From assembly GCA_964016885.1 (NCBI GenBank), contig OZ024764.1:8308001-8372000 (forward strand): a stretch of 64,000 nucleotides of DNA. Direction: 5' to 3'. The translations under genes were made by a program, and so were the position numbers. Within the stretch, counting starts at the first letter, position 1. Each line of letters begins with the position of its first letter. The stretch is from Eledone cirrhosa. Lineage: Eukaryota. Under the pieces are notes generated by a model. It did no database searches. It was not told the DNA's origin and saw only the letters and a program-made list of their open reading frames with translations. Positions 2,763 to 64,000 of this stretch are shown in pieces.

Positions 2763-5468
2763 TTAAATATCTGCAGGTGGGACAGTTAGCAGCCCTGTAG
2801 ATTTCAGCACATCAATGCCATGATGGAGGGCGCACACACGAGGGCAACCGAGGGCCACAAGAGAATTAGCAAAATCCGACATGGTCTTGACAAGGGTTCC
2901 TATTACTACCTTGACCTGAAGTCGGTGGTTGGTGAGGATTTGGGCCATCTGTGTTGAGGTGAGGGTCCCGTCAGCATTGAAGGCGTTCTGGAAGGGAATG
3001 TTAATACTGCCAGGAATGGTGCCTCGTTTGAAATCTTCTGAGGATCTTATATCTATGACCAACAACTTGGGTTTCGCAGTCGAGCTCCTCATGTCAGCAG
3101 CCGTCCTCAGTTCCCCGAGGTCAATCAAATCTTCGGCCGATATCCTTGGACATTTCTCCACCTTCAGTTCCTCGATGGGAATGTTGTCTTTGGTGAGGTC
3201 GTGGTTGGCTACAGAGGTGGTCAGCTGGTGGCTGTATTCTTTGGGGAAGTAAGATGCGGTGGTTGTTGTTGTCGCTGTTGTCCGTGAGTGAGACCACGTT
3301 GCTTTCTTCGAGACGTGGGCATGCTGGCGAAATGTGGCACTCTTTGGCGTGCTGCAGAAGATCTTGATGGAGTCCTGGACGCATTTTTCGATGTCAATTT
3401 CAGGCATGTCGGAGAAGAGGAGGATACAATCATTGAAGCCGTATGCTAGCAATCCGTCTCGGAGCTGGTGGAGAATAGCAACACCAATGCACAGCGGAAA
3501 CGATGAGTTTCCGAGCAACAGGGTGTCCCAGAGGTGGACGATCTTGTGCAGCGGGAATACATGGGCATACATTGTTAGGAACCAAGGAATGGCGTACAGG
3601 TCTGGAATGAAGCCGATGGTGTCAAGGTGGTTACTCAATTCTGGGTCATGATAGGCAATCAAGTGAGAAAAAACAGCTAGATATTCCTGAATAACAGGTG
3701 AATTGTCTTTCAGGAAGAACTTGTTCAGGTATTTCGGTATGAAAGCATCAAGACAGGCAAACGCAAGGGCTTCGTTATTGAAATTCAGGGCCAGGAATGG
3801 AGCACACAGAGAATCAAGACCTTGCCAGTACACATACTCTGAATGACTGATTATCCAGGCTTTTAGAATCCTTTTGAATTTTCTATGGGCTTCAGGTGAT
3901 GAGAGGAGTTCATGGTACTGGTGACAGCGGGGTATGTCCACTTCTATCTGTCGGTCAGTCGGTGTAGGGGTCTCCTTATCAATGGAATCATAGCGGGCTT
4001 GGATGTCTCCTTCCACCTCAAGTAGGGCTGACCAGACCTGGGCACGGTACAGTGGTGGTGTGTCGACTCTGGCTTCTCTCCAGATGTGGGCCTTCTTAAA
4101 CGGGTAGCCCTTCAGCAGGCGTTCATATAGAATGATGCGGTGGAACTGGTACTCCACGTCTTTCTCTCGAATGATGAGGGGCAGCGTGGCTGCCTGAGAC
4201 AGGTCTCCACTGCTTGGAGATGTCGGCAGACCCCTCAACATTTCTTTCTCGTCCTCCAACAGCGGGTAGTAGCAAGCATCTCCAACAGCCCTCAGTCTGT
4301 CTCTAAGCTGTTCCTGGGACAACATAATTATCGTGTTGTCCAAGAGTTCGGATTGGTCGCGTTTTTGACCAAACCATTCGCCGGTGTTTAAGATAAAGCA
4401 CGGCAAGAGTGTAACCGGTGGCCGCGATTTAATTAAGCCGGCGCGCTTAAGGACAGACTCAAGGTCTCCCCCAGCCAGTCTCCACAGGTAATAAACCTCC
4501 TCCATCGTGCGTTGAGAGAGTTTGTCGGTTTTCTTCATCAGTGCTATTTGGACCTCAGTGGGGAGCTCCAAATGCCGTAGGTCGACTTTACTGCTGAAGA
4601 ACTGGATGCCGTTCATGTACGGAACCTCCGGTGGCACTTTCACGGCAAATGCTTCATGCTGGAGCAATTCCAAGGGGGACAAGCGGTCTTTGGGATTCAG
4701 CGTTAGACATTTGCGTAATATGTCGAGCATCGCTGGGGAAATTTCCTTCGTGACGTCTTCTAGCTTGTTGTCCTTCAAAATGATGTCGAAGGGTTCATAT
4801 TTCGAGGTGACGAAGGCGAGGATTTTGTTGATGGTTTGCTGCAGGGACAACGAAGGCCACAACTGGCACCCAGCTAACGCCTCCAGCAGGACGAGACCCA
4901 GGGACCAAACATCGATCTTCGGTCCTAGATTCGGTTGTACGATAGCATTGCTGTATTCATCAACCACCACAGGGCCTGCACAGATCACCTCCGGTGCCAT
5001 GTAACGGACCAGACCAATGGGGTAGGCCACGTTCTGCCCAGATTCAGTCATATAACTCATACCATATTTAGAAATCTTTACATTTCCTTCGTTATCAAAT
5101 AAAACAGTGTCAGGGCTTAAGTTCTTAATGATGATATTCTTCTTACTCAGATAATCAAGGCCTTGGGCAATATCGTAGGCCATATTCAACAGGTCCTCTT
5201 CGCTAGTGGGGACTTGGTCCTTAATCCGTTGCCTCAGATTCTGCTTGTAATGCTCGGCCACGACAATCAACCGCTCCTGTTTCCCACGCGATATGTGTAT
5301 ATACTTGCAGAGGCTGGGATGCTCCAAGGTGATCAGATACTGGAATTTACCCAATATCTTGATGGAGTTCGGAGTCAGAGGTAAACCATTTGCCCCGCAT
5401 TTGTCGTTCGGGTGACATGAGGCAAAAAACGTTGTCACACTAAACTCGGCTTCCCCCACCGCCGACAT
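2763..5468 (-). CDS. TBCK: TBC domain-containing protein kinase-like protein (pseudokinase + Rab-GAP TBC + rhodanese-like), 901 aa, single coding exon
   Basis: N-terminal CGANGLPLTPNSIKILG. Degenerate kinase motifs (IKNLSPD in place of HRDLKPE, KYG in place of DFG, APE kept). TBC fingers IEVDIPR and YWQG. C-terminal VIDIRSSEDFKRGTIPGSINIP rhodanese fold. Uninterrupted ORF. Confidence 0.96.
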   Translation of the reverse strand: MSAVGEAEFSVTTFFASCHPNDKCGANGLPLTPNSIKILGKFQYLITLEHPSLCKYIHISRGKQERLIVVAEHYKQNLRQRIKDQVPTSEEDLLNMAYDIAQGLDYLSKKNIIIKNLSPDTVLFDNEGNVKISKYGMSYMTESGQNVAYPIGLVRYMAPEVICAGPVVVDEYSNAIVQPNLGPKIDVWSLGLVLLEALAGCQLWPSLSLQQTINKILAFVTSKYEPFDIILKDNKLEDVTKEISPAMLDILRKCLTLNPKDRLSPLELLQHEAFAVKVPPEVPYMNGIQFFSSKVDLRHLELPTEVQIALMKKTDKLSQRTMEEVYYLWRLAGGDLESVLKRAGLIKSRPPVTLLPCFILNTGEWFGQKRDQSELLDNTIIMLSQEQLRDRLRAVGDACYYPLLEDEKEMLRGLPTSPSSGDLSQAATLPLIIREKDVEYQFHRIILYERLLKGYPFKKAHIWREARVDTPPLYRAQVWSALLEVEGDIQARYDSIDKETPTPTDRQIEVDIPRCHQYHELLSSPEAHRKFKRILKAWIISHSEYVYWQGLDSLCAPFLALNFNNEALAFACLDAFIPKYLNKFFLKDNSPVIQEYLAVFSHLIAYHDPELSNHLDTIGFIPDLYAIPWFLTMYAHVFPLHKIVHLWDTLLLGNSSFPLCIGVAILHQLRDGLLAYGFNDCILLFSDMPEIDIEKCVQDSIKIFCSTPKSATFRQHAHVSKKATWSHSRTTATTTTTASYFPKEYSHQLTTSVANHDLTKDNIPIEELKVEKCPRISAEDLIDLGELRTAADMRSSTAKPKLLVIDIRSSEDFKRGTIPGSINIPFQNAFNADGTLTSTQMAQILTNHRLQVKVVIGTLVKTMSDFANSLVALGCPRVCALHHGIDVLKSTGLLTVPPADI

Positions 5469-5568
5469 CGTTTCAGTTATAAATAAATAAATATATTATC
5501 AATATACATACATATATCTTTTTTACATATATTTTGGTAGCTTATAACCTCTCCAAGTTTCTTCAATG

Positions 5569-15210: not shown

Positions 15211-15278
15211 TCACATTATAAATATATATATATATACGATATATTAACAAATGGAAACTATATTTATAAAACCATATT

Positions 15279-15343
15279 TATTTCATTATACATATTTCAA
15301 GGACACCAAGTTAAATTATGGTGTGCTTTCATCAGATAAAATA
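15279..15343 (-). ncRNA. Type I hammerhead ribozyme motif (minimal stem III)
   Basis: TATTTTAT-CTGATGA-AAGCACACCA[loop]TGGTGTCCTT-GAAA-TATGT-ATA-ATGAAATA. Stems I and II pair and the core is intact. Confidence 0.8.
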
Positions 15344-15513
15344 TAATATAGAGCAGTTTTATAAATAAATTTTGACATACCCTTAAAGAATGCGACCATT
15401 ACTGTTGGAAGCTCCCGAATAGTGCTTTATATCAGTTATAAAAATATTTGCTTGTTGTATCCCAACAATTTAAATAGAACTTCTACATATATATATATAT
15501 ATTTATTAAAATA

Positions 15514-15850: not shown

Positions 15851-16164
15851 TATTTTAATAAATATTTGCTCTACGGTTCATATATATTTGATATATATTT
15901 TCCTTATCGAGCCCTCTGGATTTTAGTCTTCAATTTTATTATTATTACTAATATATATATATATATATATATATTTATTTACACACACACATATAGACAC
16001 ACACACACACATATACCTAAATGAAAACTAAGTATTCAATAATAAGGAAAGAACCTACTATTTCTACCAACTTATTCTGTCTACAGTCATTTTACGGCAC
16101 CAGAGTCAGTCAAGAGCATATATAAGACGGAACGGTCGATAGTGTCAAAATACACACACATGAA

Positions 16165-16510
16165 GGGGAGGTGTGGTTAGTGGTTAGTGGTTAGAGCATT
16201 GGCCTTGCAATCGAAAGGTTGGGAGTTCAATTCTCAGACCGGGTGATGTGTTGTTTCCTTGAGCAAGACACTTTATTTCACATTGCTCCAGTTTACTCAG
16301 CTGTAGAAATGAGATGATAGGGACTGGGGTCCCTATCATTCCACTGCAAAATGGTTGTGTAGGTTCGACGGAAAAAAAAAAAAAAGCACCCAGCACTCAC
16401 TGTAAATGAGGTTGGTGTTAGGAAGGGCATCCAGCTGTAGAAATCAAGCCAGAATGAGTTCCCGTCCCACCCTTGCAAGCAGGGAAAAGCGGACGTATGA
16501 TGATGATGAA
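16165..16510 (+). mobile_element. tRNA-derived SINE family A with RTE-type 3' tail (also 34980-35120, 43630-44010, and 53680-54065 minus)
   Basis: A/B boxes (tagtggttagagc...gagttcaattc), central ttgagcaagacactttatttcac, and tail ttaggaagggcatccagctg...(GAT)n. Confidence 0.82.
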
Positions 16511-16929
16511 CACCAGGTCTGAACACAGTAGAACCGAACTCCCACTGTCATCGACTCCGTCTCTATCTCACCCTCCCCATCTCTCACTATTGTGAGCAAA
16601 TTGTGTCGTGGCTTCAATGCCAGGACTGAGTTTGACTGGACTGTAATTGACTGGTGGCTTGCTCGAGTGTGTGTGTGTGTGTGTGGGGGGGGTCATGCAG
16701 TGTTAGTAGCTTAGTGTCAACGAAACCAAGATAAGAATCAGCCTAATGAGACTCCAGGTTCAAGACAGACTTTAACTCTGCAATGGACTGGGGTTTTGTC
16801 CAAGAGGGAGCCTAGTACTCTGTTGTTTAACATCAAGGAAACTGAGAAAAGCATCAGCCTGGTAAAAATTGAGTCTAAAGACAGACATTAACCATGCAAT
16901 GGACTGCCGTTCTGTCCAGGGGGGAGTCA

Positions 16930-17826
16930 TGTAAGGTTCGTACATAGAATTACGATGGAAGGTTTCTAGATAAATATAAACACTTTAACCCTTTCATTAC
17001 CATATTTCTAATGAAAGACACTGTTTGGAACATAACTTAAGAAAGGTTCTTACATAAAATTATAATGGAAGGTTTTTAGATAAATATAAACACTTTAACC
17101 CTTTCATTACCATATTTCTAATGAAAGACACTGTTGGTGTTTGGAACATAACTTAACAAAGGTTCTTACATAAAATTATGATGGAAGGTTTTTAAATAAA
17201 TATAAACACTTTAACCCTTTCATTACCATATTTCTAATGAAAGACACTGTTGGTGTTTGGAACATAACTTAACAAAGGTTCTTACATAAAATTACGATGG
17301 AAGGTTTTTAAATAAATATAAACACTTTAACCCTTTCATTACCATATTTCTAAGGAAAGACACTGTTGGTGTTTGGAACATAACTTAACAAAGGTTCTTA
17401 CATAAAATTATGATGGAAGGTTTTTAGATAAATATAAACACTTTAACCCTTTCATTACCATATTTCTAATGTAAGACACTGTTGGTGTTTGGAACATAAC
17501 TTAAAGGTTCTTACATAGAATTATGATGGAAGGTTTTTAAATAAATATAAACACTTTACCCTTTCATTACCATATTTCTAATGAAAGACACTGTTGGTGT
17601 TTGGAACATAACTTAACAAAGGTTCTTACATAAAATTATGATGGAAGGTTTTTAGATAAATATAAACACTTTAACCCTTTCATTACCATATTTCTAATGA
17701 AAGACACTGTTGGTGTTTGGAACATAACTTAACAAAGGTTCTTACATAGAATTACGATGGAAGGTTTTTAAATAAATATAAACACTTTAACCCTTTCATT
17801 ACCATATTTCTAATGAAAGACACTGT
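16930..17826. repeat. 116-bp satellite (~8 copies) containing a TTAA-CCCTTT MITE terminus
   Basis: cactttaaccctttcattacc recurs at 17091, 17207, 17323 and onward. Confidence 0.9.
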
Positions 17827-18316
17827 CCCCTATGATTTTCAAATAATTCTGAAAATAATAAAAAATTCGGAAGCGATTAGTAAAATCATTTTCTTATCAT
17901 TAAGTCTTGTTTTGAACATAACAGAGGGTGGGGCCCTCCTAATTTGGCACACCCTCTCATAAATATATAAATTGGAAGAGGCTATGTAGCCGGTAAGAGT
18001 GCCAGGCACCATGAGTTGCGGACTTTTACGGTTAGAGTTAAAAGAATTTGAAATCTTTTCCACCATCAATCGTTAAAAAAACAAGTTAAAATCATTTAAT
18101 CGTCCATTGGTAACGTACCTTACACTTTAGTTACATACACCATCACCATCATCTTCGTTTAACGTCCATTTTCCACGCTGGCATACACGTAAATACATAA
18201 ACAGGTAGACAACAGAAGGAAGTGGCTGGTGAAACGCTATAGCGATGTGTATTGCGTCCATTTAGGGTTTACCGGCTAGGGGGGTTATTTATATAGATAT
18301 AAATGTATCTATTTAC

Positions 18317-18757
18317 CTTTATTCAAAGCTTCTATAGAGATTTTCACCAGTTTCACCGGAACAATGATACCACGACTTTTTTCGACTTTCTGGTCCTTAT
18401 TATTGTCACCATTGTTGCTGTTGCTGTTACTATTGTTGCTGTTACTGTTGTTGCTGTTACTATTGTTGCTGTTACTGTTGTTGCTGTGACTATTGTTGCT
18501 GTTACTGTTGTTGCTGTTACTGTTGTTGCTGTTACTGTTGTTGCTGTTACTGTTGTTGCTGTTACTATTGTTGCTGTTGCTGTTCTGGGGCTCAGGTATA
18601 CGGAGTAATTTACTCAGTTCTTGCTTCACCGATTCTTCCAGGTGTTCGCTCCCTAAAGATTCCTGCAAACAGTCCTGGAGTCGCTGGGACAAAAGGACCT
18701 CTGGCACATACATTATACTGTCCCTCTGTCTCTCTAGCTGTTGTTGTACGTCGCTCT
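18317..18757 (-). CDS. Unknown gene, coding exon 3 (includes Asn/Ser repeat)
   Basis: Open frame SDVQQQLERQRDSIMYVPEVLL...ESLGSEHL...(NSNSN)n...EALNK. Donor AAAG|GTAAAT. Confidence 0.7.
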
Positions 18758-18764
18758 CTTTGAG

Positions 18765-18806
<42 letters not shown>

Positions 18807-18812
18807 AAACAC

Positions 18813-18887
18813 GGCTTCTCTCTAGTAACTCAGCGGTTCTCTCTGTTGAGTGTGCTTTTCTCTCGTATTCACGCACGGTCTCTCTCC
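18813..18887 (-). CDS. Unknown gene, coding exon 2 (GRETVREYERKAHSTERTAELLERS)
   Basis: tatag| acceptor and C|GTGTTT donor. Phases 1/1 are consistent, but the splice sites are weak. Confidence 0.55.
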
Positions 18888-19003
18888 CTATATATATATA
18901 TAAAGTATTTCTGTAGGACAATAAACTACTGGTAAATGAAATAATTATCTTATGTTGTTTTTTACGTAACTATATGTGTGTATATATATATATATATCAA
19001 AAC

Positions 19004-19088
19004 CGTATGTTTTTTTCGCTTCGTTGGAACACCACCATGTCTTTCGTTGTTGTGGTGTGAGCTGTGTTGTCGGGTTCGTCGATGGCAT
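19004..19088 (-). CDS. Unknown gene, first coding exon (MPSTNPTTQLTPQQRKTWWCSNEAKKTY)
   Basis: ATG at 19088 next to a CpG-rich region. G|GTTTTG donor in phase with exon 2. Confidence 0.55.
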
Positions 19089-19280
19089 AAACTGATTACG
19101 TCATCGAAGTAGGCGAATTGTGCACTCTGACGGACTTCCGTCGGTTTCGACGACGAATTTCCTAGTCTTCTTGTGAAATTAACGTTCAAGAGTCTGAGCT
19201 TTCCACAGGTACGTGTACGCTTAACGAAGTAGTAAATCTCAGGGAGACTTAGTGCGACATGGCACAATCAGACGAATAAA
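19089..19280. promoter_or_regulatory. CpG-rich putative (bidirectional) promoter
   Basis: High CpG, a tacgtca CRE-like motif, an acttccg ETS-like motif, and a + strand donor CAG|GTACGT at 19208. Confidence 0.45.
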
Positions 19281-19544
19281 CAGCAGTAGTTTTTATTTAA
19301 GCAAGGTAGATAACTGTGAGCTATCTTATATCGGTTCAGAAACTGCACTAGTAACCTCCCTTGAAAATGCACGACCACACTGTATTGTTTAACCTTTAAT
19401 CAGCTTTTAACAAGGAGCCATGTGACCAGCGGTATATCGCAGCCATGACTATCACGTCCTATTTTTAGTATTTTTCTTCTTTTTTTCCCCCCAAATCCAG
19501 TCATTGGACTGCGGCCATGCTGGGGCATGAGCTACAAGGGGTAT

Positions 19545-20680
19545 AGTTATAATAATAATGAAATTATTGTGTACAGTGCTCAGGTGCACTACAACTCATC
19601 AAAGGTGCATGTATAGTACATAGGATAATGTACAAATGTCAGGAAAATGAACAGTGTATGAGTCATGATATAATAACAATAACAATAATGAAATATTGTG
19701 TACAGTGCCCAGGTGCACCACAACTCATCAAAAAAGTGCATGTACAGTACATAGGGCAATGCACAAACATCAGTAAAATGAACAGTGCACGAGTCATGAT
19801 ACACACATGTGTGCATGTGTATGGAAGGGGTACATCTGGTGTAGTTTTGGCGTATTTCGGGAAGCATGAGTGTCTTAAAGGATGCAGTGTCTCGGCAGCT
19901 AACAATTGACGCAGGCAGTTTGTTCCATGCTTCAGCAACTCTGAGCGTGAAAAAATGTCTGCGAAAGTCATGGGAGCTGTGCTGTTTTCTTATCTTGTAG
20001 GCATGTCCACGTGTGTTAGACACATGGAGATCAAAGAGGCGCTCAGGGTTGCAGTTGGCGAGATGGTTAAAAACTTTGTGGGTATTCACCAAGTCCATTG
20101 CCAGACGTCGGAGCTTCAATGAATCCATGCCCAGGGAAGCAAGGCGTTCAGAGTATGGTAGGTGTCTGATGGAGGGTATGCGCTTGGTTGCACGTCTCTG
20201 AACAGTTTCCAGGAGGTCAATGTTCCGAGCAAGATAGGGGTTCCAGACTGATGATGCGAATTCCAAGTGTGGTCGCACCATAGCTGTATACAGTTTTAAA
20301 TAGATGGCTGGAGAGCGGCTAACAAAGGTCTTGCTGAGTGATGCCAAGACACCCTCGGCCTTCTTGACAATCTTTAAGACATGCTTTGTCCAACGCAAAT
20401 CGTTGCTGACAGTAATGCCCAGGTCACGTTCACAAGAGGACTTTTTGATGTCAGTGTTGTGGAGGGAGTATGTGGAAGCTGGATTTTTCCTTCCAAAATG
20501 CATGGTGGTACACTTGTCCACAGCCAGCTTCAGTTGCCAGTCTGTGATCCATTGCTGCATTGTGTCCAGGTCTGATTGTAGGAAAGAGTTGTAAATTTCA
20601 GGATCAGTCCTTTTGATTTCAAGGTACAGCTTGATGTCATCTGCATATTTTAGTACCGTGGCATTCTGTAAGTTGGCATA
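19545..20680 (-). mobile_element. 5'-truncated CR1-like LINE (RT C-terminus) with duplicated 3' end
   Basis: YADD, VRPHLEFASSVWNP, VQRRATK, TRGH and WNKLP motifs. (TTA)n tail. The 3' UTR is present twice (19545-19655, 19670-19790). Confidence 0.9.
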
Positions 20681-21097
20681 TACATACTTTAGTTGATCAT
20701 ATACATACGTATATCATCATCATTGCCACCAATTCTGTACTGAGGCGGGGCCACTGATCTTCTGAAGCCAGGGATCTGTGTTTCACTTATGTACGGTCTC
20801 ACGTTCCATCGAATGCTTAGGGGAGGTCCAACCCTTTGTTTGTCAAGATTTCTACGGCTGGAGGCCCTTCCTTTCACCAGCCCCTTTACAGTGTGTACTG
20901 GGTGCGTTTATCGTGTAAATCACTAACATTAGGGAGGTTGTCAAGCCCTTGACACAATTGGAGGGTAACATTATACATATATATATATATATGCATATAT
21001 ATATATATATAATTGTTTCTACTTTAGGCACAAGGCCAGCAATTACCCAGTGCATTACTGGTACTTTATTTTATCGACCCCGTAAGGATGAAAGGCA

Positions 21098-21245
21098 AAT
21101 TCTGGACAGTCCAGAATTAGCCGTCGAAACGGCTTGAGCTCAGCCGTCGGGGTCCTACTCGTTCCTATTACCCACTCTACTACCCGAAGTATTGAGTACT
21201 TTGGTGCGTTATGGTCCACCTGGTTCCTTACCACATTTCCTTCGT

Positions 21246-21247
<2 letters not shown>
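21098..21247 (+). mobile_element. Second copy of the 0.7-0.9 kb element, with the 3' half of a hammerhead
   Basis: Hairpin aattctggacagtccagaatt, then GAAA-CGGC[loop]GCCG-TC-GGGG. The 5' side is truncated at a SINE junction. Confidence 0.55.
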
Positions 21248-21276
<29 letters not shown>

Positions 21277-21300
21277 ACAATTAATAAAGATGGTGATGTG

Positions 21301-21417
21301 ACAAAAATCGTTTATTCGTTATAATTATTTCAACGGTTCTCCCATGCAATCAAGATGTAATTCATCCATTTGTTGCTGTTATGAGAACGGTATCCTCAGA
21401 TGAAATTCGATTTTGTT
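21301..21417 (-). ncRNA. Type I hammerhead ribozyme motif
   Basis: acaaaatcg..tttcat-CTGAGGA-taccgttctc[long loop]gagaaccgtt-GAAA-TAATT-ATA-acgaa..cgatttttgt, with palindromic TAATTA in stem III. Confidence 0.72.
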
Positions 21418-21605
21418 ATATGCTGCCGGCAGGAAAAACATGTCCTTCTGCTCGGGTGCCCAGCAGATATATGAGTTCCTGAAAGGGTCTCCCAGCCGTC
21501 GTATTCACTAGAGTAAAGTGCTATCCATGTGTCAATTAGCGAAATCAAGATATATATATATATGGATATAATATAATATGAAAAGATGGTTGAAAGAGTT
21601 CCATG

Positions 21606-21677
21606 TATTTTATTATGCGCATTTCAAAAACAAATATCATCCATGGGATGATACTTGCGTTCTCATCAGATAAAATA
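21606..21677 (-). ncRNA. Type I hammerhead ribozyme motif (best preserved)
   Basis: TATTTTAT-CTGATGA-GAACGCAAGTATCATCC.CAT.GGATGATATTTGTTTTT-GAAA-TGCGC-ATA-ATAAAATA. Perfect 8-bp stem I and palindromic TGCGCA. Confidence 0.85.
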
Positions 21678-22114
21678 GGGAGACATGATATGAAGTTTAA
21701 AAAAACACTTGCGAGCAGTGAAATGTTAAATCTACATATGAAAAATAAAATAAGATGGATATATAAGATTGGGAAAAAAAGAAGGAAGGGGGAAGGAAAA
21801 GGTAAGGAAGAGGAAGAAAGAAAATAAAGGATGACGGGGCAGGAGTATAAGAAGGAAGGATGAGAGAGGAGGAGAAATGAGTGAGAGAGATATTTGCATT
21901 GCTTTATTTGCATTGCTTTAGTGTGTTACAATAAAACTCACCTCCTACATATATATATATATAGATATATATGCCCACGAGGAAGATAGACGTTAAACAA
22001 TGATGATGATGTTATATATATATATGTTAAGTATTTCCATGGAAAAGGTAAAGGAAAGAAGAGTGCTCAATGTATAGTACAGAGCTATTTAATTAGATAA
22101 TAAACAACACAAAT

Positions 22115-23026
22115 AAGCACCAAATCCACACTGTAAAGTGGTCATGTAGGAGACACAGTAAAAAGGCTCCCAGTCCACACTGTAAAGTGGTCGTGGAGGA
22201 GACACAGTAAAAAGGCTCCCAGTCCACACTGTAAAGTGGTCATGTAGGAGACACAGTAAAAAGGCACCCAGTCCACACTGTAAGGTGGTCATGTAGGAGA
22301 CACAGTAAAAAGGCTCCCAGTCCACACTGTAAAGTGGTCGTGTAGGAGACACAGTAAAAAGGCTCCCAGTCCACACTGTAAAGTGGTCATGTAGGAGACA
22401 CAGTAAAAAGGCCCCCAGTCCACATTGTAAGGTGGTCGTGTAGGAGACACAGTAAAAAGGTTCCCAGTCCACACTGTAAAGTGGTCGTGTAGGAGACACA
22501 GTAAAAAGGCTCCCAGTCCACACTGTAAAATGGTCGTGTAGGAGACACAGTAAAAAGGCTCCCAGTCCACACTGTAAAATGGTCGTATAGGAGACACAGT
22601 AAAAAGGCTCCCAGTCCACACTGTAAAATGGTCGTGTAGGAGACACAGTAAAAAGGCTCCCAGTCCACACTGTAAAGTGGTCGTGTAGGAGACACAGTAA
22701 AAAGGCTCCCAGTCCACACTGTAAGGTGGTCGTGTAGGAGACACGGTAAAAAGGCTCCCAGTCCACAGTGTAAAGTGGTCATGTAGGAGACACAGTAAAA
22801 AGGCTCCCAGTCTACACTGTAAAGTGGCCATGTAGGAGACACAGTAAAAAGACTCCCAGTCCACACTGTAAAGTGGTTGGTCTTAGGAAGGGCATCCAGC
22901 CATAGAAAACCTGGCATATACTGTCCTATAAGAGCGATGCAGTCACCCAACCAATCTTGCTTCAAGTGGGACAAAACCGTCCAACCCGTGCTAGTGTGGA
23001 AAATGGGCATTAGACGATGATGATGA
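22115..23026 (+). repeat. 49-bp minisatellite (~15 copies) within an RTE/SINE 3' tail
   Basis: Unit cccagtccacactgtaaagtggtcgtgtaggagacacagtaaaaaggct, followed by the shared tail. Confidence 0.9.
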
Positions 23027-23157
23027 TATATCACTTTCAGTAGGACAAGGGGTCATCTGCTCTGGCTTGGTTCACATCTGGACAACTCGTCTAACACATG
23101 CTAGCATGGAGAAGTGAATTTTAAATGGAGATAATGACGATGAGCATGATGATATGT

Positions 23158-24240
23158 ATATAATAATGAAATTATTGTGTAAAGTGCTCAGGTGCACTAC
23201 AACTCGTCAAAGGTGTATGTATAGTACATAGAATAATACACAAATGTCAGGGAAGTACATGTGTGTATGTGTTAGCTGTAGTGTTGGCGGATCTCGGGAA
23301 GCATGGAGGCCTTAAAAGATGCAGTGTCTCGACAGCTAACAACTGATGCAGGTAGTTTGTTCCAAGGAGGTTTTAAAGGATGCAGTGTCTCGACAGCTAA
23401 CAACTGATGCAGGGAGTTTGTCCCATGGAGGTTTTAAAGGATGCAGTGTCTCGACAGCTAACAACTGATGCAGGGAGTTTGTTCCATGGAGGCCTTAAAG
23501 GATGCAGTGTCTCGACAGCTAACAACTGAAGCAGGTAGTTTGTCCCATGGAGGTTTTAAAGGATGCAGTGTCTCGACAGCTAACAACTGATGCAGGTAGT
23601 TTGTTCCATGGAGGTTTTAAAGGATGCAGTGTCTCGACAGCTAACAAATGATGCAGGGAGTTTGTCCCATGGAGGTTTTAAAGGATGCAGTGTCTCGACA
23701 GCTAACAACTGATGCAGGGAGTTTGTTCCATGGAGGCCTTAAAGGATGCAGTGTCTCGACAGCTAACAACTGAAGCAGGTAGTTTGTCCCATGGAGGATT
23801 TAAAGGATGCAGTGTCTCGACAGCTAACAACTGATGCAGGTAGTTTGTTCCATGCTTCAGCAACTCTGAGCGTGAAAAAATGTTTCCGAAAGTCATGGGA
23901 ACTGTGCTGTTTTCTTACTTTGTGGGCATGTCCACGTGTGTCCACACATGGAAATCGAAAAAATACTCAGGGTTGTTGTTGGCAACATGGTTAACAATTT
24001 TGTGGGTGTTTACCAAGTCAGTTGCCAGGCGTCGGAGCTTCAATGAATCCATGCCCAGGGAAGCAAGGCGCTCAGAGTATGGTAGATGCCTGATGGAGGG
24101 TATTCGCTTGGTTGCACGTCTCTGAACAGTTTCCAGGCGGTCAATGTCCTGAGCAAGATAGGGGTTCCAGACTGGTGATGCAAATTCTAAGTGTGGTCGC
24201 ACCATAGCTGTATACAGCCTTAAATAGATATCTGGAGAGC
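23158..24240 (-). mobile_element. CR1-like LINE 3' fragment with an internal 60-bp tandem expansion (23310-23855, ~9 copies)
   Basis: Near-identical to 35585-36480. The repeated segment encodes WNKLPASVVSCRDTASFK. Confidence 0.9.
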
Positions 24241-24385
24241 TATGTGTGTTGAACAATGAAAATAAAGCAACTGTCATAAATAAAGTTACATTCTTTATTA
24301 GTTCTTAATTAGTTTGTTAATTAAGAACTCCTTTTCGTCTTTTGTTTTATTTTCATTGTTCAAAACATTCATACACACACGTATA

Positions 24386-24459
24386 TTTATATATATACAT
24401 ATATATAGGAGGAAGTTATATATATATTAATACAAAGAGAGGGAATAGTGAGTGAGAGA

Positions 24460-24499
<40 letters not shown>

Positions 24500-24555
24500 T
24501 ATAGGAGGAAGTTATATATATATTAATACAAAGAGAGGGAGTAGTGAGTGAGAGA

Positions 24556-24593
<38 letters not shown>

Positions 24594-24649
24594 CATAGGA
24601 GGAAGTTATTTATATATTAATACAAAGAGAGGGAATAGTGAGTGAGAAA

Positions 24650-24709
<60 letters not shown>

Positions 24710-24761
24710 GGAGGAAGTTATATATATATTAATACAAAGAGAGGGAATAGTGAGTGAGAAA

Positions 24762-24801
<40 letters not shown>

Positions 24802-24857
24802 TATAGGAGGAAGTTATATATATATTAATACAAAGAGAGGGAGTAGTGAGTGAGAGA

Positions 24858-24925
<68 letters not shown>

Positions 24926-24977
24926 GGAGGAAGTTATATATATATTAATACAAAGAGAGGGAATAGTGAGTGAGAAA

Positions 24978-25017
<40 letters not shown>

Positions 25018-25073
25018 TATAGGAGGAAGTTATATATATATTAATACAAAGAGAGGGAGTAGTGAGTGAGAGA

Positions 25074-25125
<52 letters not shown>

Positions 25126-25200
25126 GGAGGAAGTTATATATATATTAATACAAAGAGAGGGAATAGTGAGTGAGAGAGATGTATATATATATATATATAG
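24386..25200. repeat. Compound minisatellite (ggaggaagttata...gagagggaatagtgagtgaga + (TA)n)
   Basis: About 8 copies with variable TA runs. Confidence 0.88.
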
Positions 25201-25395
25201 AGAGAGAGAGGGGTAGAAAGTGAAATAACAATATTAAGAGGCGAGTGTGAGAGATGTACATATATCATCATCATCATCATCATCATCATTAGCCTCATCT
25301 GAAATCGTCTCAACAATTCATCTCCACGTGGGTCTGTCGTTCATTGCTGTTGCCAAGTCCTGGATTTCAATACCAGAATCTCTGGAGATGATAAC

Positions 25396-26892
25396 GGGAT
25401 AGGAGAGCTTGTGGCCCCTGTTATTAGTGACTGCTTGTGGTTTCTATAGCACTAATGGGGACACAGCCTCAGAGGTGGCACGATGGCAGTGGCCAGCAAA
25501 TTGGGATAGGAGAGCTTGTGGCCCCTGTTATTAGTGACTACTTGTGGTTTCTATAGCACTAATGGGGACACAGCCTCAGAGGTGGCACGATGGCAGTGGC
25601 CAGCAAATTGGGATAGGAGAGCTTGTGGCCCCTGTTATTAGTGACTGTTTGTGGTTTCTATAGCACTAATGGGGACACAGCCTCAGAGGTGGCACGATGG
25701 CAGTGGCCAGTAAATTGGGGTAGGAGAGCTTGTGGCCCCTGTTATTAGTGACTGTTTGTGGTTTCTATAGCACTAATGGGGACACAGCCTCAGAGGTGGC
25801 ACGATGGCAGTGGCCAGCAAATTGGGGTAGGAGAGCTTGTGGCCCCTGTTATTAGTGACTGCTTGTGGTTTCTATAGCACTAATGGGGACACAGCCTCAG
25901 AGGTGGCACGATGGCAGTGGCCAGCAAATTGGGATAGGAGAGCTTGTGGCCCCTGTTATTAGTGACTACTTGTGGTTTCTATAGCACTAATGGGGACACA
26001 GCCTCAGAGGTGGCACGATGGCAGTGGCCAGTAAATTGGGGTAGGAGAGCTTGTGGCCCCTGTTATTAGTGACTGCTTGTGGTTTCTATAGCACTAATGG
26101 GGACACAGCCTCAGAGGTGGCACGATGGCAGTGGCCAGCAAATTGGGGTAGGAGAGCTTGTGGCCCCTGTTATTAGTGACTGCTTGTGGTTTCTATAGCA
26201 CTAATGGGGACACAGCCTCAGAGGTGGCACGATGGCAGTGGCCAGTAAATTGGGGTAGGAGAGCTTGTGGCCCCTGTTATTAGTGACTGCTTGTGGTTTC
26301 TATAGCACTAATGGGGACACAGCCTCAGAGGTGGCACGATGGCAGTGGCCAGCAAATTGGGGTAGGAGAGCTTGTGGCCCCTGTTATTAGTGACTGCTTG
26401 TGGTTTCTATAGCACTAATGGGGACACAGCCTCAGAGGTGGCACGATGGCAGTGGCCAGCAAATTGGGATAGGAGAGCTTGTGGCCCCTGTTATTAGTGA
26501 CTGCTTGTGGTTTCTATAGCACTAATGGGGACACAGCCTCAGAGGTGGCACGATGGCAGTGGCCAGCAAATTGGGATAGGAGAGCTTGTGTCCCCTGTTA
26601 TTAGTGACTGTTTGTGGTTTCTAGAGCACTAATGGGGACACAGCCTCAGAGGTGGCACGATGGCAGTGGCCAGCAAATTGGGATAGGAGAGCTTGTGTCC
26701 CCTGTTATTAGTGACTGTTTGTGGTTTCTAGAGCACTAATGGGGACACAGCCTCAGAGGTGGCACGATGGCAGTGGCCAGAAAATTGGGATAGGAGAGCT
26801 TGTGGCCCCTGTTATTAGTGACTGCTTGTGGTTTCTAGAGCACTAATGGGGACACAGCCTCAGAGGTGGCACGATGGCAGTGGCCAGCAAAT
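25396..26892. repeat. 107-bp satellite (14 copies) derived from LINE ORF2
   Basis: ggataggagagcttgtggcc recurs every 107 bp and the flanks continue the LINE frame. Confidence 0.92.
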
Positions 26893-26999
26893 CTTACTCT
26901 CCTTTTACGCACAACGACAGATATAAATGGGAGGCTGGCATATATCTCTCTCAAAGTCAGATGTCACCAGCTTATGTTCTGAATGTGTCGAAGCAGGCG

Positions 27000-27153
27000 A
27001 GTGTAGGTGACATCAAGGTGGTAGTGGTAGTAGTAGTGTAGGTGCCATCAAGGTGGTAGTGGTAGTAGTGTAAGTGACATCAAGGTAGTAGTGGTAGTAG
27101 TAGTAGTGTAGGGTACCATCAAGGTAGTAGTGGTAGTGTAGGGTGCCATCAAG

Positions 27154-33981: not shown

Positions 33982-34580
33982 GATGGCTGCACCCTCGTTA
34001 TCGAGTATGGCCATTGCACAATATACCATTATTAATAATTATTAATTAATTTTATCGTGCAATGCCTGTGCATGAAGATATTTTTTAAAGTGAGGACAGA
34101 CTGTGCACTGAGCCAATCCCACTCTCTGAGAGACAGTAGCTATAACCTGAAAAGAAGAAAAGATCAACATCATCTGTAACTACTGAGCCGCAGGATTTAT
34201 ATTGGAGTTATCCCAGTTTCCTGAGTTACCTTCTCCTAGAAGAATGCCCTGACAAAGGCTAGGGGTCCTTTACTCACCATGTGATCGGGTGTCCAGCCCG
34301 ACTATTTCTATGTCCCCGCGCATATACATACACATGCACCCATGCATATACACATACGTATGTACATGTGTATATACATATTTACACACTTTTGGATGGC
34401 CGTTGACTCTTATGAGTTCTTCTGCCCTTTGTCAGCTTTTGCTTTTTGTCCTGCAGGGTGTCCAAAATCACCCTCCTCACCAAGTAAACTTGGTGGGGTT
34501 GCCGGTTTAGTTGCTGACGACCGGACCATGTGACAGGTTGTACTGGGTTACATGTTACCTGTAGCACTCAAGAGTGACCC
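33980..34580 (-). mobile_element. ~600-bp non-coding retroelement (RTE-like 5' UTR joined to a LINE-like 3' end); second copy at 40188-40775
   Basis: Two diverged colinear copies, both flanked by (TA)n, with a taggagaagg motif and a structured 5' end. Confidence 0.6.
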
Positions 34581-37676: not shown

Positions 37677-37790
37677 GAAAAGAAATTGAAAATGAAATTG
37701 AAGAATATTTACTTACTTGCTTTACCGGTATATATATACCGGTAAAGCAAGTAAGTAAATATTCTTCAATTTCATTTTCAATTTCTTTTC

Positions 37791-37836
<46 letters not shown>

Positions 37837-37869
37837 CATATATATATAGATGAGGCAGTTAAGGCCAAG
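37602..37869. repeat. ~268-bp near-perfect palindrome
   Basis: Centre ccgg(ta)5ccgg. The arms appear to differ only in TA-run length. Confidence 0.92.
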
Positions 37870-40170
37870 AGACAGGCATGGAAAGAATGGAAGAACGGGG
37901 GGAGCAGGGTACATTACATAGAGACCAAGAAGGAAGCTAGGCGACAAGTTTACTTAGCTAGGAGGGAAGCAGAGGATAGAAAATTCAAGCATGTCTTGCA
38001 ACGTGAGGACCAGAAACAGGAGGTATTCAAGATTGCGAGGCAGTGTGTCAGAGAGAATTGTGATATCATTGGAGAGAAGTGTATCCGGAATGATGAAGGT
38101 GAGCTTGCCCTCACAAGTGCTGAGAAGAAAGATGCATGGAAGAGTCATTATGATAGATTACTAAATGAGGAGAATGCATGGGAAGAAGAGACCCTACCCC
38201 AAGTAGACCCTATAGAGGGGCCAGCAATACAAGTCAGCAGCAGCGTAGTAAGTAAGGCAATCAAAGATATGAAGATGGGGAAGGCAACCGGTCCATCGGG
38301 TATAGCTGCCGAGATGCTGAAGACATCTGGGTCTGTAGGTCACACTATAACCACACGTATTGTTAACCAGGTAATACTAGAAGGTGTCATACCAAAAGAT
38401 TGGTGCAGTAGCATCATTGTCAACTGCTACAAAGGTAAAGGTGATGCACTAGATATAAAGCTGATGGACAAGGTCATGAAAGTAACAGAAAGAGTTATAG
38501 CACAGTTGATGAGGGACCGGGTGAAACTAGACGAGATGCAATTTGGGTTTGTACCAGGAAGAGGCACCACTGATGCCCTCTTCCTTGTCAGGCAGTTACA
38601 GGAAAAGTACCTAGCTAAAAGTAAGCCACTCTACCTGGCATTTGTTGACCTTGAGAAAGCCTTTGACAGAGTTCCACGTGCTGTAATGTGGTGGGCTCTT
38701 AGAAAACTAGGAGTAGATGAATGGCTTGTGAAAGCGGTACAAGCCATGTATAGGGGAGCAGTCAGCAAAGTTATGATTAGCAATGAGTATAGCGAGGAAT
38801 TTAGCGTACAGGTTGGGGTCCACCAGGGCTCTGTTCTTAGCCCCCTCCTGTTCATCATAGTCCTGCAGGCAATAATGGAGGAGTTTAAGACCGGATGCCC
38901 ATGGGAACTCCTGTATGCTGATGACCTCGCACTTATAGCTGAATCTATGGTAGAACTAGAGAAGAAATTCCAAACTTGGAAGCAGGGACTAGAAAGAAAG
39001 GGTCTCAAAGTCAACATGACAAAGACTAAGGTCCTTGTAAGTAGACGAGAAAACAGAACCCAGATCCCCTCAGGGAAATGGCCTTGCTCAGTATGTAGGA
39101 AAGGTGTAGGTAGGAACTCCATTCTCTGCCCCAAATGCAAACAATGGGTACACAAGAGATGTAGCGGGTTCTCAGGAAGCTTAATTAAGAATGTAGGCTT
39201 CACATGCAGTAGCTGTGCTGGGACAGCAAGCAGCAAACAGCCACAGGAAACAAGTACCACCAATCTCTGGGAGGGCTCTGTCGAAACAGTAGACAGCTTC
39301 TGCTACCTAGGTGACCGAATTAGCAGCAGAAGTGGGTGTTCAGAAAGTACAATAACTCGGGTAAGAACGGGATGGAAGAAGTTTAGGGAACTACTACCAC
39401 TGCTAGCTGCAAAAGGCTTCTCCCTCAAAATGAAAAGCAGACTGTATGATGCGTGTATCCGAACGGCGATGTTGCATGGTAGTGAGACCTGGGCGCTGAA
39501 GGTGGAAGACTTACGTAGATTAGAGAGAAATGAAGCCTGCATGCTCCGATGGATGTGTAATAGTAATATACGCGAACGGCAAAGCATAAATGAATTGAGA
39601 GAGACTCTGAGCATAAGAGGAATCAAATGCTGTGTGCAGGAGAGGCGGTTGCGTTGGTATGGACATGTGATGTGTATGAAGGATGACAGCTGCATAAAAA
39701 GGTGCAGAGCACTAAAGTCGATGGAAACCGCGGAGTGGGGAGACCCAAGATGACCTGGGATGAGGTGATAAAAGCCGACCTTACCCAATTACACCTCTCA
39801 AAGGCGATGACACATGACCGTGACCTCTGGCGTCCCGCAGTAATACAGAGTACCCGACCTCCCATGGGTACAAGCTGAAGCATATAGACAATATGCCCCC
39901 ACACCCCTCACTGCAATGTGGTCGTGGAGGTGCCATGGCAAAAAAGCACCCAGCCCACACTGTAAAGTGGACGTGTAGGCGCCACGGAAAAAAAAGCACC
40001 CAGCACTCACTGTAAATGAGGTTGGTGTTAGGAAGGGCATCCAGCTGTAGAAATCAAGCCAAATCAGTTCCTGTATGAGCAGACACTGCCCACAACAGGA
40101 CAACCCGTCTAACCCATGCTAGCGTGGAAGAACGGACGTAAAACGGTGATGATGATGATGATGATGATAT
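37849..40170 (+). mobile_element. 5'-truncated RTE-like LINE; RT with an inserted PHD-like Cys/His finger
   Basis: QFGF..GRGTTDA, FVDLEKAFD, GVHQGSVLSP, YADD, CSVC..CPKC..HKRC..CSSC and RLRWYGHV motifs. The 3' tail is shared with SINE family A. Confidence 0.93.
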
Positions 40171-56096: not shown

Positions 56097-57975
56097 ACTT
56101 TGAACTTTGAACTTTGAAATGTTTTGGCCAGTATTGGCCCAGGCCATGTCTAACTTAATAGCACCACCTGGCGAAGTCTTTCAATTCAGGATTTGGGCAC
56201 CATGGCCCATTCGAGAAGAGAATTACTGTTTGCGGAGACATATCCGGGTGTGGGTGGTTTGTCCAGGATTACTTGGAGGAATTTGTCCAAAGACTTCTTG
56301 AATTTTGTGTGGTCAGTTTCTGTTTTGACGTGTCCTGGTGTGATGTTGAAGAGAGCAGGGCCGATTGAGGTGAAATAATTGTGCCGTATTGTTGTTATGA
56401 GTTGCGATTTAGATTTTTGAATGGGACGGATAGCACGGGGCCCAAGCCTTGGGTGTATCTTGAAGGCGATGCCAACATCATTTGAGCAGTGATGATGGAA
56501 CATTTTCCACATCATGCAGATAATATAACGCTCACGGCGACGTTGGAGTGAGTAAAGTTTCAGGTTTTCTAATCGACCCCAGTAGTCAAGGTCTGACATG
56601 CCATCTATCTTTTTCGTGATTGCCCTTTGAGGAGCTTCAAGTTTCATGATACTTTGTTTCGTGTGGGGAGACCACAGTGGACAACAGTATTCAAGGTGTG
56701 GTCGGGCGAAAGTAGAGAAGAGAAGGATAATGGTGTGGGAATCTCTCGACTGGAAGGTTCTGAGGATCCAGGAACACATTCTGCGGGCCATGTCAACTTT
56801 GCTGCTTATATGCGTGGTCCAGCTTATGTTGCTGTCCACGGTTACTCCCAAGTCTCTGATGTTGTTAGATGCCACGAGAGTTTCCCCGGAGGGAAGGGAG
56901 TACGGGAGTTTCAGAGCATCCTCTTTTCCAAAGTGGATCAGTTCGAATTTGTCTTCGTTCAGTAACATGTTGTTCTTTTCTGCCCATTGGGTAACAGCCA
57001 GTAGGTCTGACTGAAGGCTTATCCGGTCATCCACGCCATTGATGACCTTTTGGAGCTTGGAATCATCAGCGAAAATTTTAATGTTGCTGTGTTTGATGAT
57101 GTCAGTGATGTCATTAATATAGATGATGAAGAGAAGTGGGCCCAACACAGTGCCTTGTGGGACCCCACTACTGACTTTGACTGGGCTTGATTTGACTCCC
57201 TCAACTACAACATGTTGGGTTCTGTTTGACAGGAAGCTCTTGATCCACTGCAGCAGCTTTCCAGTGACACCAATATTGGACAGCTTTCTCAGTAGAATGT
57301 TATGATCAACCCTGTCAAAGGCCTTGCTGAAATCAAGGTAGATAACATCAGTGTTGGAACCCTCTCCAAGGCTCTCAAAATGTCATCAAAGTGATGCAGT
57401 AGCTGCGTCAGGCAATCCCTTCCATTACGGAATCCATGCTGGTTGGAGTTCAGCATATTGTTACTCTCAAGGAAGTGGGTCATTCGCGATCTCACCACTC
57501 GCTCAAATACCTTAATGATATGAGAGGTGAGTGAGATTGGACGGTAATTCACGGCAAGGGATTTGTTTCCCTTTTTGAAAACTGGGACAACAGACTGGGA
57601 TAGAAGGTTTTCTGGCACATATCCAGCATCCAGTGAGTTCCGCCACAGATTGGCAAGAGGAGATGCAAGTTGGTGTTGACACGCCTTCAAGACACAAGCA
57701 GGGAACCTATCGGGACCTACTGCTGAATTATGCTTGATTTCCTTTATTGCCGCCAAGACATCAGGGGCGCCAAACGTTATGTCCGATAAGGTGTAATGGG
57801 GAGTAACATCGCCGATACAGCCCAGATCGGCCATATCAGGATTGCTGAAAACAGAGCAGTATTGTTTCTGCAGTATCTCACCCATGGTTTTAGCATTGTC
57901 TTGAAGAGTGCCATTTTCATCAATTAGAGAGCCAACAGTAGAGCCAGTGATTTTGTGTTTTTTTGCAATGAAAAA
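56097..57975 (-). mobile_element. 5'-truncated CR1/L2-group LINE with a frameshift in RT
   Basis: Near-identical to 62175-64000. Frameshift near 57365. (TTCAAAG)n tail. Confidence 0.92.
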
Positions 57976-60869: not shown

Positions 60870-63800
60870 TACATCAACTGGAAAAAAACATTCGAGCTAT
60901 CACCCAGCACCACCCTCCACTATCACCCCACTGCACAAACTCCCATTGCTGCCATTAACAAACAAACAAATTAACAACACACCAAAACAATTAAAACCAT
61001 CCACTCTCGCCTCTACATTTTTGCTTAACGCCCAAGGCATCAGCCCTTCCACCAATACTAAAAAATGGAAGATCAAATTCCTGGAGGACTGGATTGATGT
61101 CCATCCAAACCACATCCCTTTCTTCGTCCTCACTGAAACCCATCTCTGTAACCTCCACTTGGAAGCCGAGGTGAAAGTGAAAAATTTCAAAGCCATCCGT
61201 GCTGATCGCGCTGGCAGAAGAAAGGGCGGAACTGCCATTTATGTCCATAATTCTTTCTCAACAGAGGCTATGAACATATTCACTAATGGATACTGTGAAG
61301 CAGTCACTGTATTCAGTCAAACCAACAACCTATTAGTAGTTGGGCTCTATAGGCCACCCCAAACGCCTGTACCATGCTTCAAGGAATGCCTCAACAGCAT
61401 AAAGTGTTTCATCCAAGAGTGTCACCCTGACAACATCTTAATGATGGGGGACTTCAACCTCCCCGGAGTTGACTGGTCCACAAACAGCCTGCCACCAGGT
61501 TCTTCTGCCTCAACCTCTGACAGGGAAGCTGTGGAATCGCTTCTTGACTTCATGGATGATTTCTTCCTATCCCAACTGGTGCTCGAACCAACGAGGTGCC
61601 ACAAAAACGTCCTAGACTTAATTTTCAGCAATCACACTGACAATATCCACAATATTGCAGTGGAGAAAACTCTACTCTCTGATCATGACATGGTTCTCTG
61701 TGATCTGAGATTCCACCGTCCAATATACAAACCCAATGTCATCTCTCCTGTCCATCCGTTTGACGCTATGGATTTCCACAATGCAAACTGGGAAGCGATC
61801 AGTCATGATCTTGCACATGTCGACTGGTCCTTCACGCACACTCATACACCCACTAACATCAAAAAGTCCTGGCAGACATTTGTGGACACTGTTACAAACA
61901 TATGTGCTAAACACACCCCATTAAGAACTATAAACAAATCTAAGAGCAGAATCCCTAGAAATAGAAAAACGCTCATCAGAAAAATTAAGAGAACGAACAA
62001 AAAAATCAACAAGCTGAAATACTGTCAGCAGCAACACATCAACTTGACTGCCATTTCATCACTAGAGATTAAAAAACATAACCTCCAAAACAACATAATG
62101 TCCCTCATCAACAATCAGAGAAGAGCTGAAGAGGCCTGGGCCATTGAGAAGATCAAACTCAATCCCAAAGTGTTCTTTTCATTTGCAAAAAAACACAAAA
62201 TCACTGGCTCTACTGTTGGCCCTCTAATTGATGAAAATGGCACTCTTCAAGACAATGCTAAAACCATGGGTGAGATACTGCAGAAACAATACTGCTCTGT
62301 TTTCAGCAATCCTGATATGGCCGATCTGGGCTGTATCGGCGATGTTACTCCCCATTACACCTTATCGGACATAACGTTTGGCGCCCCTGATGTCTTGGCG
62401 GCAATAAAGGAAATCAAGCATAATTCAGCAGTAGGTCCCGATAGGTTCCCTGCTTGTGTCTTGAAGGCGTGTCAACACCAACTTGCTTCTCCTCTTGCCA
62501 ATCTGTGGCGGAACTCACTGGATGCTGGATATGTGCCAGAAAACCTTCTATCCCAGTCTGTTGTCCCAGTTTTCAAAAAGGGAAACAAATCCCTTGCCGT
62601 GAATTACCGTCCAATCTCACTCACCTCTCATATCATTAAGGTATTTGAGCGAGTGGTGAGATCGCAAATGACCCACTTCCTTGAGAGTAACAATATGCTG
62701 AACTCCAACCAGCATGGATTCCGTAATGGAAGGGATTGCCTGACGCAACTACTGCATCACTTTGATGACATTTTGAGAGCCTTGGGAGAGGGTTCCAACA
62801 CTGATGTTATCTACCTTGATTTCAGCAAGGCCTTTGACAGGGTTGATCATAACATTCTACTGAGAAAGCTGTCCAATATTGGTGTCACTGGAAAGCTGCT
62901 GCAGTGGATCAAGAGCTTCCTGTCAAACAGAACCCAACATGTTGTAGTTGAGGGAGTCAAATCAAGCCCAGCCAAAGTCAGTAGTAGAGTCCCACAAGGC
63001 ACTGTGTTGGGCCCACTTCTCTTCATCATCTATATTAATGACATCACTGACATCATCAAACACAGCAACATTAAAATTTTCGCTGATGATTCCAAGCTCC
63101 AAAAGGTCATCAATGGCGTGGATGACCGGATAAGCCTTCAGTCAGACCTACTGGCTGTTACCCAATGGGCAGAAAAGAACAACATGTTACTGAACGAAGA
63201 CAAATTCGAACTGATCCACTTTGGAAAAGAGGATGCTCTGAAACTCCCGTACTCCCTTCCCTCCGGGGAAACTCTCGTGGCATCTAACAACATCAGAGAC
63301 TTGGGAGTAACCGTGGACAGCAACATAAGCTGGACCACGCATATAAGCAGCAAAGTTGACATGGCCCGCAGAATGTGTTCCTGGATCCTCAGAACCTTCC
63401 AGTCGAGAGATTCCCACACCATTATCCTTCTCTTCTCTACTTTCGCCTGACCACACCTTGAATACTGTTGTCCACTGTGGTCTCCCCACACGAAACAAAG
63501 TATCATGAAACTTGAAGCTCCTCAAAGGGCAATCACGAAAAAGATAGATGGCATGTCAGACCTTGACTACTGGGGTCGATTGGAAAACCTGAAACTTTAC
63601 TCACTCCAACGTCGCCGTGAGCGTTATATTATCTGCATGATGTGGAAAATGTTCCATCATCACTGCCCAAATGATGTTGGCATCGCCTTCAAGATACACC
63701 CAAGGCTTGGGCCCCGTGCTATCCGTCCCATTCAAAAATCTAAATCGCAACTCATAACAACAATACGGCACAATTATTTCACCTCAATCGGCCCTGCTCT

Positions 63801-64000
63801 CTTCAACATCACACCAGGACACGTCAAAACAGAAACTGACCACACAAAATTCAAGAAGTCTTTGGACAAATTCCTCCAAGTAATCCCGGACAAACCACCC
63901 ACACCCGGATATGTCTCCGCAAACAGTAATTCTCTTCTCGAATGGGCCATGGTGCCCAAATCCTGAATTGAAAGACTTCGCCAGGTGGTGCTATTAAGTT
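60870..64000 (+). mobile_element. CR1/L2-group LINE ORF2 (APE + RT) with one premature stop at 63448-63450
   Basis: LTETHL, YRPP, GDFN, LDL, SDH; [31 protein letters not shown]; YSLQRRRERY. The frame continues to 63966. Confidence 0.93.

Follow-up and report, generated by a model that had tools for sequence, protein, structure and literature searches.

We analysed a 64,000-nt window of the Eledone cirrhosa genome (contig OZ024764.1, positions 8,308,001 to 8,372,000), numbered here from its first letter. At 21301..21677, two hammerhead ribozyme motifs lie on the (-) strand, each inside an insertion of a different repeat family (A and B), and a TA repeat joins the two insertions. The features are listed with their strand and the basis of each assignment.

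21891..21949, (+) strand: family A 3' tail fragment, inverted and attached to the A insertion on its 5' side; a 14-nt stretch is duplicated locally (match to copy L046)
21564..21890, (-) strand: family A, pseudo-LTR of a putative Hydra-clade Penelope-like element, reduced to its 3' part by 5' truncation and having the short 3' end (identity to copies)
21606..21677, (-) strand: hammerhead 1, type I, family A (descriptor, alignment, local folding)
21550..21563, no strand: (TA)n run joining families A and B (sequence; 21 of 29 family A copies run into (TA)n at this point)
21270..21551, (-) strand: family B, 3' end of a second putative Hydra-clade element that looks older and is truncated on its 5' side (identity to copies)
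21301..21416, (-) strand: hammerhead 2, type I, family B (descriptor, alignment to copies)

When the whole window was scanned with a hammerhead descriptor, four candidates carried CUGANGA, GAAA and UH in order, and three of them, with cores at 21669, 21399 and 15335 and all on the (-) strand, had paired stems; the fourth, at 34514, was dropped for its unpaired stems. In hammerhead 1, stem I is formed by 21677-21670 with 21613-21606 (8 of 8 Watson-Crick pairs), the core CUGAUGA lies at 21669-21663 and GAAA at 21625-21622, and the 37-nt stem II arm (21662-21626) has a G.U pair at its base and a C-U mismatch at 10.4/11.4; the palindrome is UGCGCA, the triplet is AUA, H17 is at 21614, and the cut is predicted at 21614/21613. 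Hammerhead 2 has the core CUGAGGA at 21399-21393, GAAA at 21331-21328, a 61-nt stem II arm (21392-21332) with U-U at the stem base and a C-C mismatch at 10.4/11.4, the palindrome UAAUUA, an AUA triplet, H17 at 21320, and a predicted cut at 21320/21319. Its stem I is broken at 21318 by an A-C mismatch at 2.2/1.2, one pair from the cut; apart from this mismatch, both motifs show CUGANGA, GAAA and NUH in type I order together with stems I, II and III. The predicted cuts are 294 nt apart, and the longest Met-ORF on the sense strand between them is only 20 aa. The earlier note had described two same-strand (-) type I hammerheads with intact cores, GAAA, AUA and palindromic stems III, whose cuts are 294 nt apart with no convincing ORF between them, and all of this, coordinates included, was reproduced. 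Both cores are intact, as that note states; stem I is fully paired in hammerhead 1 and mismatched in hammerhead 2.

Both motifs passed the same descriptor that was used on a 1-Mb genome sample, where this search, proposed in the earlier note, gave 50 matches compared with 0 on controls. In an Rfam scan of 16000-27000, a hammerhead was absent among the 32 matches up to E 10. Covariation of the stems among genomic copies was seen across families, in which stems I and II stay paired with different bases; inside family A or family B the comparison was uninformative, the copies being too alike for covariation to be visible. Judged by their sequences, both motifs are confirmed as real type I hammerheads.

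A search with 21560-21760 revealed family A as a second family, with copies that were 93-96% identical. The copy in the window has a median identity of 95.3% to 41 loci hits (best, 96.8%), and its hammerhead is marked by an extra G in loop 2. Other family A copies reach variable lengths upstream, up to more than 1.3 kb further and into an RT-endonuclease ORF, and among 29 copies the 3' end was short and ran into (TA)n in 21, was long with a tail in 6 and was of another kind in 2. Attached to this insertion on its 5' side, 21891-21949 matches the long tail of copy L046 over 59 nt (94.9%) and runs opposite to the A body; a (TA)n run follows it at about 21950-21971.

The family B piece ends in (TA)n at about 21246-21272. 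Its median identity to 61 loci hits is 87.1%, and its best is 91.3% among the fetched B copies; the B stub is thus more diverged than the A stub (95.3% and 96.8%) and therefore likely the earlier arrival, although these relative ages come from identity to best-hit copies rather than from a tree, so that the insertion order is one that we infer. An allele with an empty site was not seen. Family B copies extend as far as about 640 nt upstream in the loci fetched first, and 21 of 29 have more family sequence upstream at the point where the window has family A. Their 3' ends were short and ran into (TA)n (9 of 29), long with a tail (9 of 29) or other (11 of 29), and both families share this pattern of variable 5' ends with common short or long 3' ends. 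Position 1.2, a C in hammerhead 2, is a U in 25 of 27 best-hit copies and in 19 of 22 copies picked by their upstream sequence, and the pairing base stands at 21318 in about 98% of the summed contig depth (contigs, three runs, one outside sample). The full core was kept in only 10 of the 22 family B copies picked by upstream sequence versus 34 of 35 aligned family A hammerheads.

The combination of the two pieces appears to be unique to this place. With 21290-21700 as the query, 43 matches were obtained (best 40 of 2376 candidates scored), and the whole query was covered by the window alone; all other scored matches were restricted to the family B part, from about 21551 down. A junction query gave 42 matches (best 40 of 821 scored), of which only the window crossed the junction and the other 41 stopped by query base 114. 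Because only the best 40 candidates were scored in each genome search, rare composite copies could be missed. Family A occurred at 45 other loci and family B at 64 others (partly overlapping sets), and both were present in 2: L003 holds A and B on opposite strands, and L060 holds them in reverse order, about 730 nt apart. Families A and B had no significant DNA similarity (best match, E 0.13), in line with the earlier statement that the two ribozymes differ and do not make a simple tandem repeat.

Copies of both families elsewhere in the genome encode RT and endonuclease, which answers the earlier question of linkage to RT/GIY-YIG ORFs. For family A, the RT and endonuclease frames were found by walking upstream in other copies, and in L099 one 541-aa frame, read from motifs, runs from the RT core to the endonuclease. 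These parents have RWI, DKT, YRDD, a CxCX5C linker, CNLC and CLH, with no CxxC between the two endonuclease strands. The family B parents have broken RT and endonuclease frames with DKT, YRDD, a CxCX5C linker and CxxC; L221 and L233 carry RT, endonuclease and the hammerhead 2 end all on one strand, and the proteins are about 42-57% identical to those of family A in aligned stretches. The Hydra clade comprises C-terminal EN+ Penelope-like elements defined by a list of motifs and by insertion into (TA)n (Craig et al. 2021, PMC8557442). In a motif comparison with section 11 of that paper, the markers DKT, CxCX5C linker, CxxC and CxH were present and CCHH was absent, and insertion into (TA)n, 5' truncation, inversion and an optional tail were likewise found. 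The RWK position reads RWI in L111 (family A) and RWR in the homologues P0002 and P0003, and the family B sequence stops short of this region. Families A and B therefore match Hydra-clade Penelope-like elements by motifs rather than by phylogeny, and the earlier note was right to call the hammerheads Penelope-type with a palindromic stem III. The Neptune/Nematis clade was also considered; only one cysteine lies between LVY and YFG, and the linker is CxCX5C. The Neptune reading was dropped because the motif check fits the Hydra clade. Pfam did not recognize the family A RT or endonuclease, and a protein homologue search returned 4 proteins among 7998 scored.

The window itself holds no coding part of a Hydra-clade element. 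The RT ORF at 19589-20713 was rejected as a partner, having a weak RVT_1 match to the domain end only, and tblastn with Hydra proteins found no similarity anywhere in the window, this ORF included; it looks like a LINE 3' end. Elsewhere in the window, 2763-5495 (-) is an open intronless frame of 910 codons with kinase, TBC and rhodanese domains, presumably TBCK-like. As it was the only genome match among 18 candidates scored, it is possibly a retrogene that replaced its parent. A 1216-nt inverted repeat (56152-57367 and 62785-64000, 99%) lies inside LINE-type RT frames, about 16930-17830 is filled by a tandem array whose unit recurs roughly every 120 nt, and a 664-codon frame at 37759-39753 (+) has an RVT_1 and PHD-finger match. 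The output of a repeat finder on the whole window was dominated by microsatellites.

The abundance of hammerheads was estimated from 100 evenly spaced 10-kb stretches, which make up 1 Mb of the 3.0-Gb genome. The descriptor found 50 hammerheads in 31 of the 100 stretches, falling into 14 clusters, and no match on the reversed-only plus complemented-only controls of the sample. This rate of about 50 per Mb corresponds to about 150,000 genome-wide (111,000-197,000). Family A was found in 7 stretches (7 loci per Mb), or roughly 20,000 copies, and family B had 0 matches in the 1-Mb sample, which limits it to at most about 11,000 copies. Same-strand pairs of different families within 1 kb numbered 4 (330, 450, 612 and 976 nt apart) in 2 of the 100 stretches, which scales to about 6,000 places genome-wide (700-21,600), an estimate that rests on two stretches, with both L141 pairs coming from one fold-back insertion. 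That insertion (L141 4238-4870) has four hammerheads of two families, with a same-strand different-family pair on each strand. The window contains 3 hammerheads compared with 3.2 expected, and the closeness of hammerheads 1 and 2 is no more than chance in the genome sampled. The third type I hammerhead (core at 15335, (-) strand, in an element at about 15265-15360) has an imperfect palindrome (UAUGUA) and belongs to another, abundant family (a cluster of 17 of the 50 sampled matches); it too has a C-C mismatch in stem II. True head-to-tail repeats were seen at L171 6569-7935 and L146 6358-7234, with a period of about 525 nt, 98% identity and a hammerhead in each unit with the 8-nt palindrome CUAAUUAG. 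These repeats are better retrozyme candidates than the pair at 21301..21677, or may be partial-tandem pseudo-LTRs.

Folding predictions likewise speak against a functional pair. PMC4209133 suggests that Penelope-like element (PLE) hammerheads whose stem III is a short palindrome work as dimers and are poor cleavers even then, and PMC11167929 describes one PLE hammerhead as protein-assisted and dispensable for insertion in vitro. The calculated stem III duplex energies were -10.5 kcal/mol for hammerhead 1 with itself, -2.6 kcal/mol for hammerhead 2 with itself and +4.9 kcal/mol for UGCGCA with UAAUUA, which meet with three central mismatches. The dimer route is closed for hammerheads 1 and 2 because their palindromes differ, and the earlier proposal that the pair acts as a dimer falls with it. 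In local folding (span of at most 120 nt) hammerhead 1, which looks intact, formed; for hammerhead 2, the pairs of stem I beside the cut had a probability of 0. When the 411-nt region is folded as a whole, the prediction pairs one core with the other and contains neither hammerhead. The starts of the two hammerheads (21666-21650 and 21394-21381, (-) strand) are complementary over 9 plus 5 pairs; by prediction this would lock the two cores of a joint transcript, and the complementarity is probably a matter of chance. The 294-nt unit has 37% GC, and as a circle it would be 52% paired with a z of -0.39 versus 60 shuffles, without the high self-pairing of retrozymes. After cutting and joining at both sites, 7 of the 10 positions of the chimeric stem I would be paired, a better match than in stem I of hammerhead 2 itself. 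This one result speaks for a circle, and AT-rich stems may explain it. From these models, excision of a 294-nt RNA from 21301..21677 is not expected.

Elements of the Hydra clade are among the closest known relatives. As described in PMC8557442, they also have RT followed by endonuclease in one ORF, with DKT, CxCX5C, CxxC and CxH and no CCHH; they insert into (TA)n, carry a hammerhead near the 3' end and show 5' truncation, inversion and a tail. By our own reading of its File S2, U-U stands at the stem II base in 14 of 26 Hydra rows. However, the stem II arms found here (37 and 61 nt) are longer than in any Hydra row of that file, the stem III palindromes are perfect and 8 nt long, and RWI replaces RWK. 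A C-C or C-U mismatch at 10.4/11.4 occurred in 33 of 50 sampled hammerheads here (plain register) versus 0 of the 26 File S2 rows, a list compiled by a search in which paired stems were favoured. Comparison of the families shows that stem II remains paired around this mismatch although its bases differ, and that 10.1/11.1 varies. The metazoan PLE pseudo-LTR hammerheads of Cervera and De la Pena (2014, PMC4209133) resemble ours in being type I with a palindromic stem III and a long helix II, and occur mostly as single motifs in truncated copies, also as inverted pairs, and as supposed dimers. They differ in having a conserved G10.1-C11.1 pair and one additional base behind position 9; our two hammerheads have G.U and U-U at 10.1/11.1, where G-C was found in only 8 of the 50 sampled hammerheads. 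The literature searched holds no mention of the C-C mismatch, and Lunse, Weinberg and Breaker 2016 or Arkhipova 2017 may describe such a stem II variant; for cephalopod Penelope hammerhead ribozymes, the search returned only PMC8557442.

The earlier note had taken the locus for a single non-autonomous, ribozyme-bounded unit, which would be transcribed, cut at both hammerheads, circularized and spread as one element in the manner of a retrozyme. Two intact cores on the same strand, the missing ORF and the low GC agree with this proposal, and so do descriptions of metazoan non-LTR retrozymes (PMC7229834; bioRxiv 10.64898/2026.07.22.740005), in which type I hammerheads lie a few hundred bases apart at low GC with no intervening ORF; the 294-nt spacing is inside the range of metazoan retrozyme circles (170-400 nt, PMC7229834), and the 2026 preprint by Li et al. 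argues for an origin of retrozymes from PLE pseudo-LTRs. However, retrozymes as described there are tandem repeats with an identical hammerhead in each unit and form highly self-paired circles, whereas the locus is a single junction of unrelated ends. Two separate families of different divergence and apparent age lie side by side without tandem repetition, the junction was found at a single one of the 40 scored places, namely the window, rather than amplified, the palindromes are incompatible, the circle has no unusual self-pairing, and stem I of hammerhead 2 is broken. Largely refuted by the single-copy junction on sequence grounds, this reading is almost certainly wrong. It is also extremely improbable that both ends were integrated together in one event by an RT switching template between family B and family A RNAs. 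The two pieces lie directly next to each other, point the same way and share TA microhomology, but the B copy is at most 91.3% and the A copy up to 96.8% identical to its relatives, which argues for different times, and A has its own 5' inversion and TA end.

Best supported is a simpler history, and we are highly confident that the region consists of two truncated 3' ends of different Hydra-clade elements, likely joined by two separate insertions into one TA repeat. Each element's endonuclease would have nicked (TA)n, and its RT would have copied the RNA from the 3' end, stopped early and left a stub. Family B would have gone into a TA tract first. Later, a younger copy of family A would have entered the TA run bordering B on its 5' side, bringing the inverted tail piece that such elements typically have; 5' truncation, inversion and a tail are described for PLE insertions in PMC8557442 and PMC11167929. 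The hammerheads would be passengers, which in the parent element would process that element's own RNA as a same-family dimer or with protein help. An accidental, incipient retrozyme is a quite improbable addition to this history: chance neighbours from which read-through, with trans partner RNAs or an element protein, would occasionally release a chimeric 294-nt RNA. Transcripts of the roughly 20,000 family A copies could pair with hammerhead 1, PLE hammerheads can be protein-assisted (PMC11167929), and the chimeric stem I pairs at 7 of 10 positions. However, hammerhead 2 is predicted to misfold, the cores pair together in the 411-nt global fold even though hammerhead 1 forms at a 120-nt span, and PLE hammerheads are poor cleavers even as dimers (PMC4209133). 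We regard as very improbable the bolder proposal that accidental same-strand pairs of different families, numbering in the thousands owing to the accumulation of about 150,000 Hydra ends with hammerheads in shared TA tracts, act as a nursery of retrozymes in which some pairs, including this one, are cut in trans into chimeric circles with hybrid hammerheads, and in which the C-pyrimidine mismatch marks a protein-gated subtype.

Hammerheads 1 and 2 lie together by chance; they add new members to a known kind and are ordinary genome litter, and the locus itself is of little weight. It carries a caution: where a genome has about 50 hammerheads per Mb, finding two on the same strand within a few hundred nucleotides is not enough to call a retrozyme. 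With a long arm and, at the fourth pair, a mismatch of C with a pyrimidine, the stem II design shared by these hammerheads is a modest variant that can be tested. Chimeric circles from such pairs, if demonstrated, would provide a direct route from PLE ends to retrozymes.
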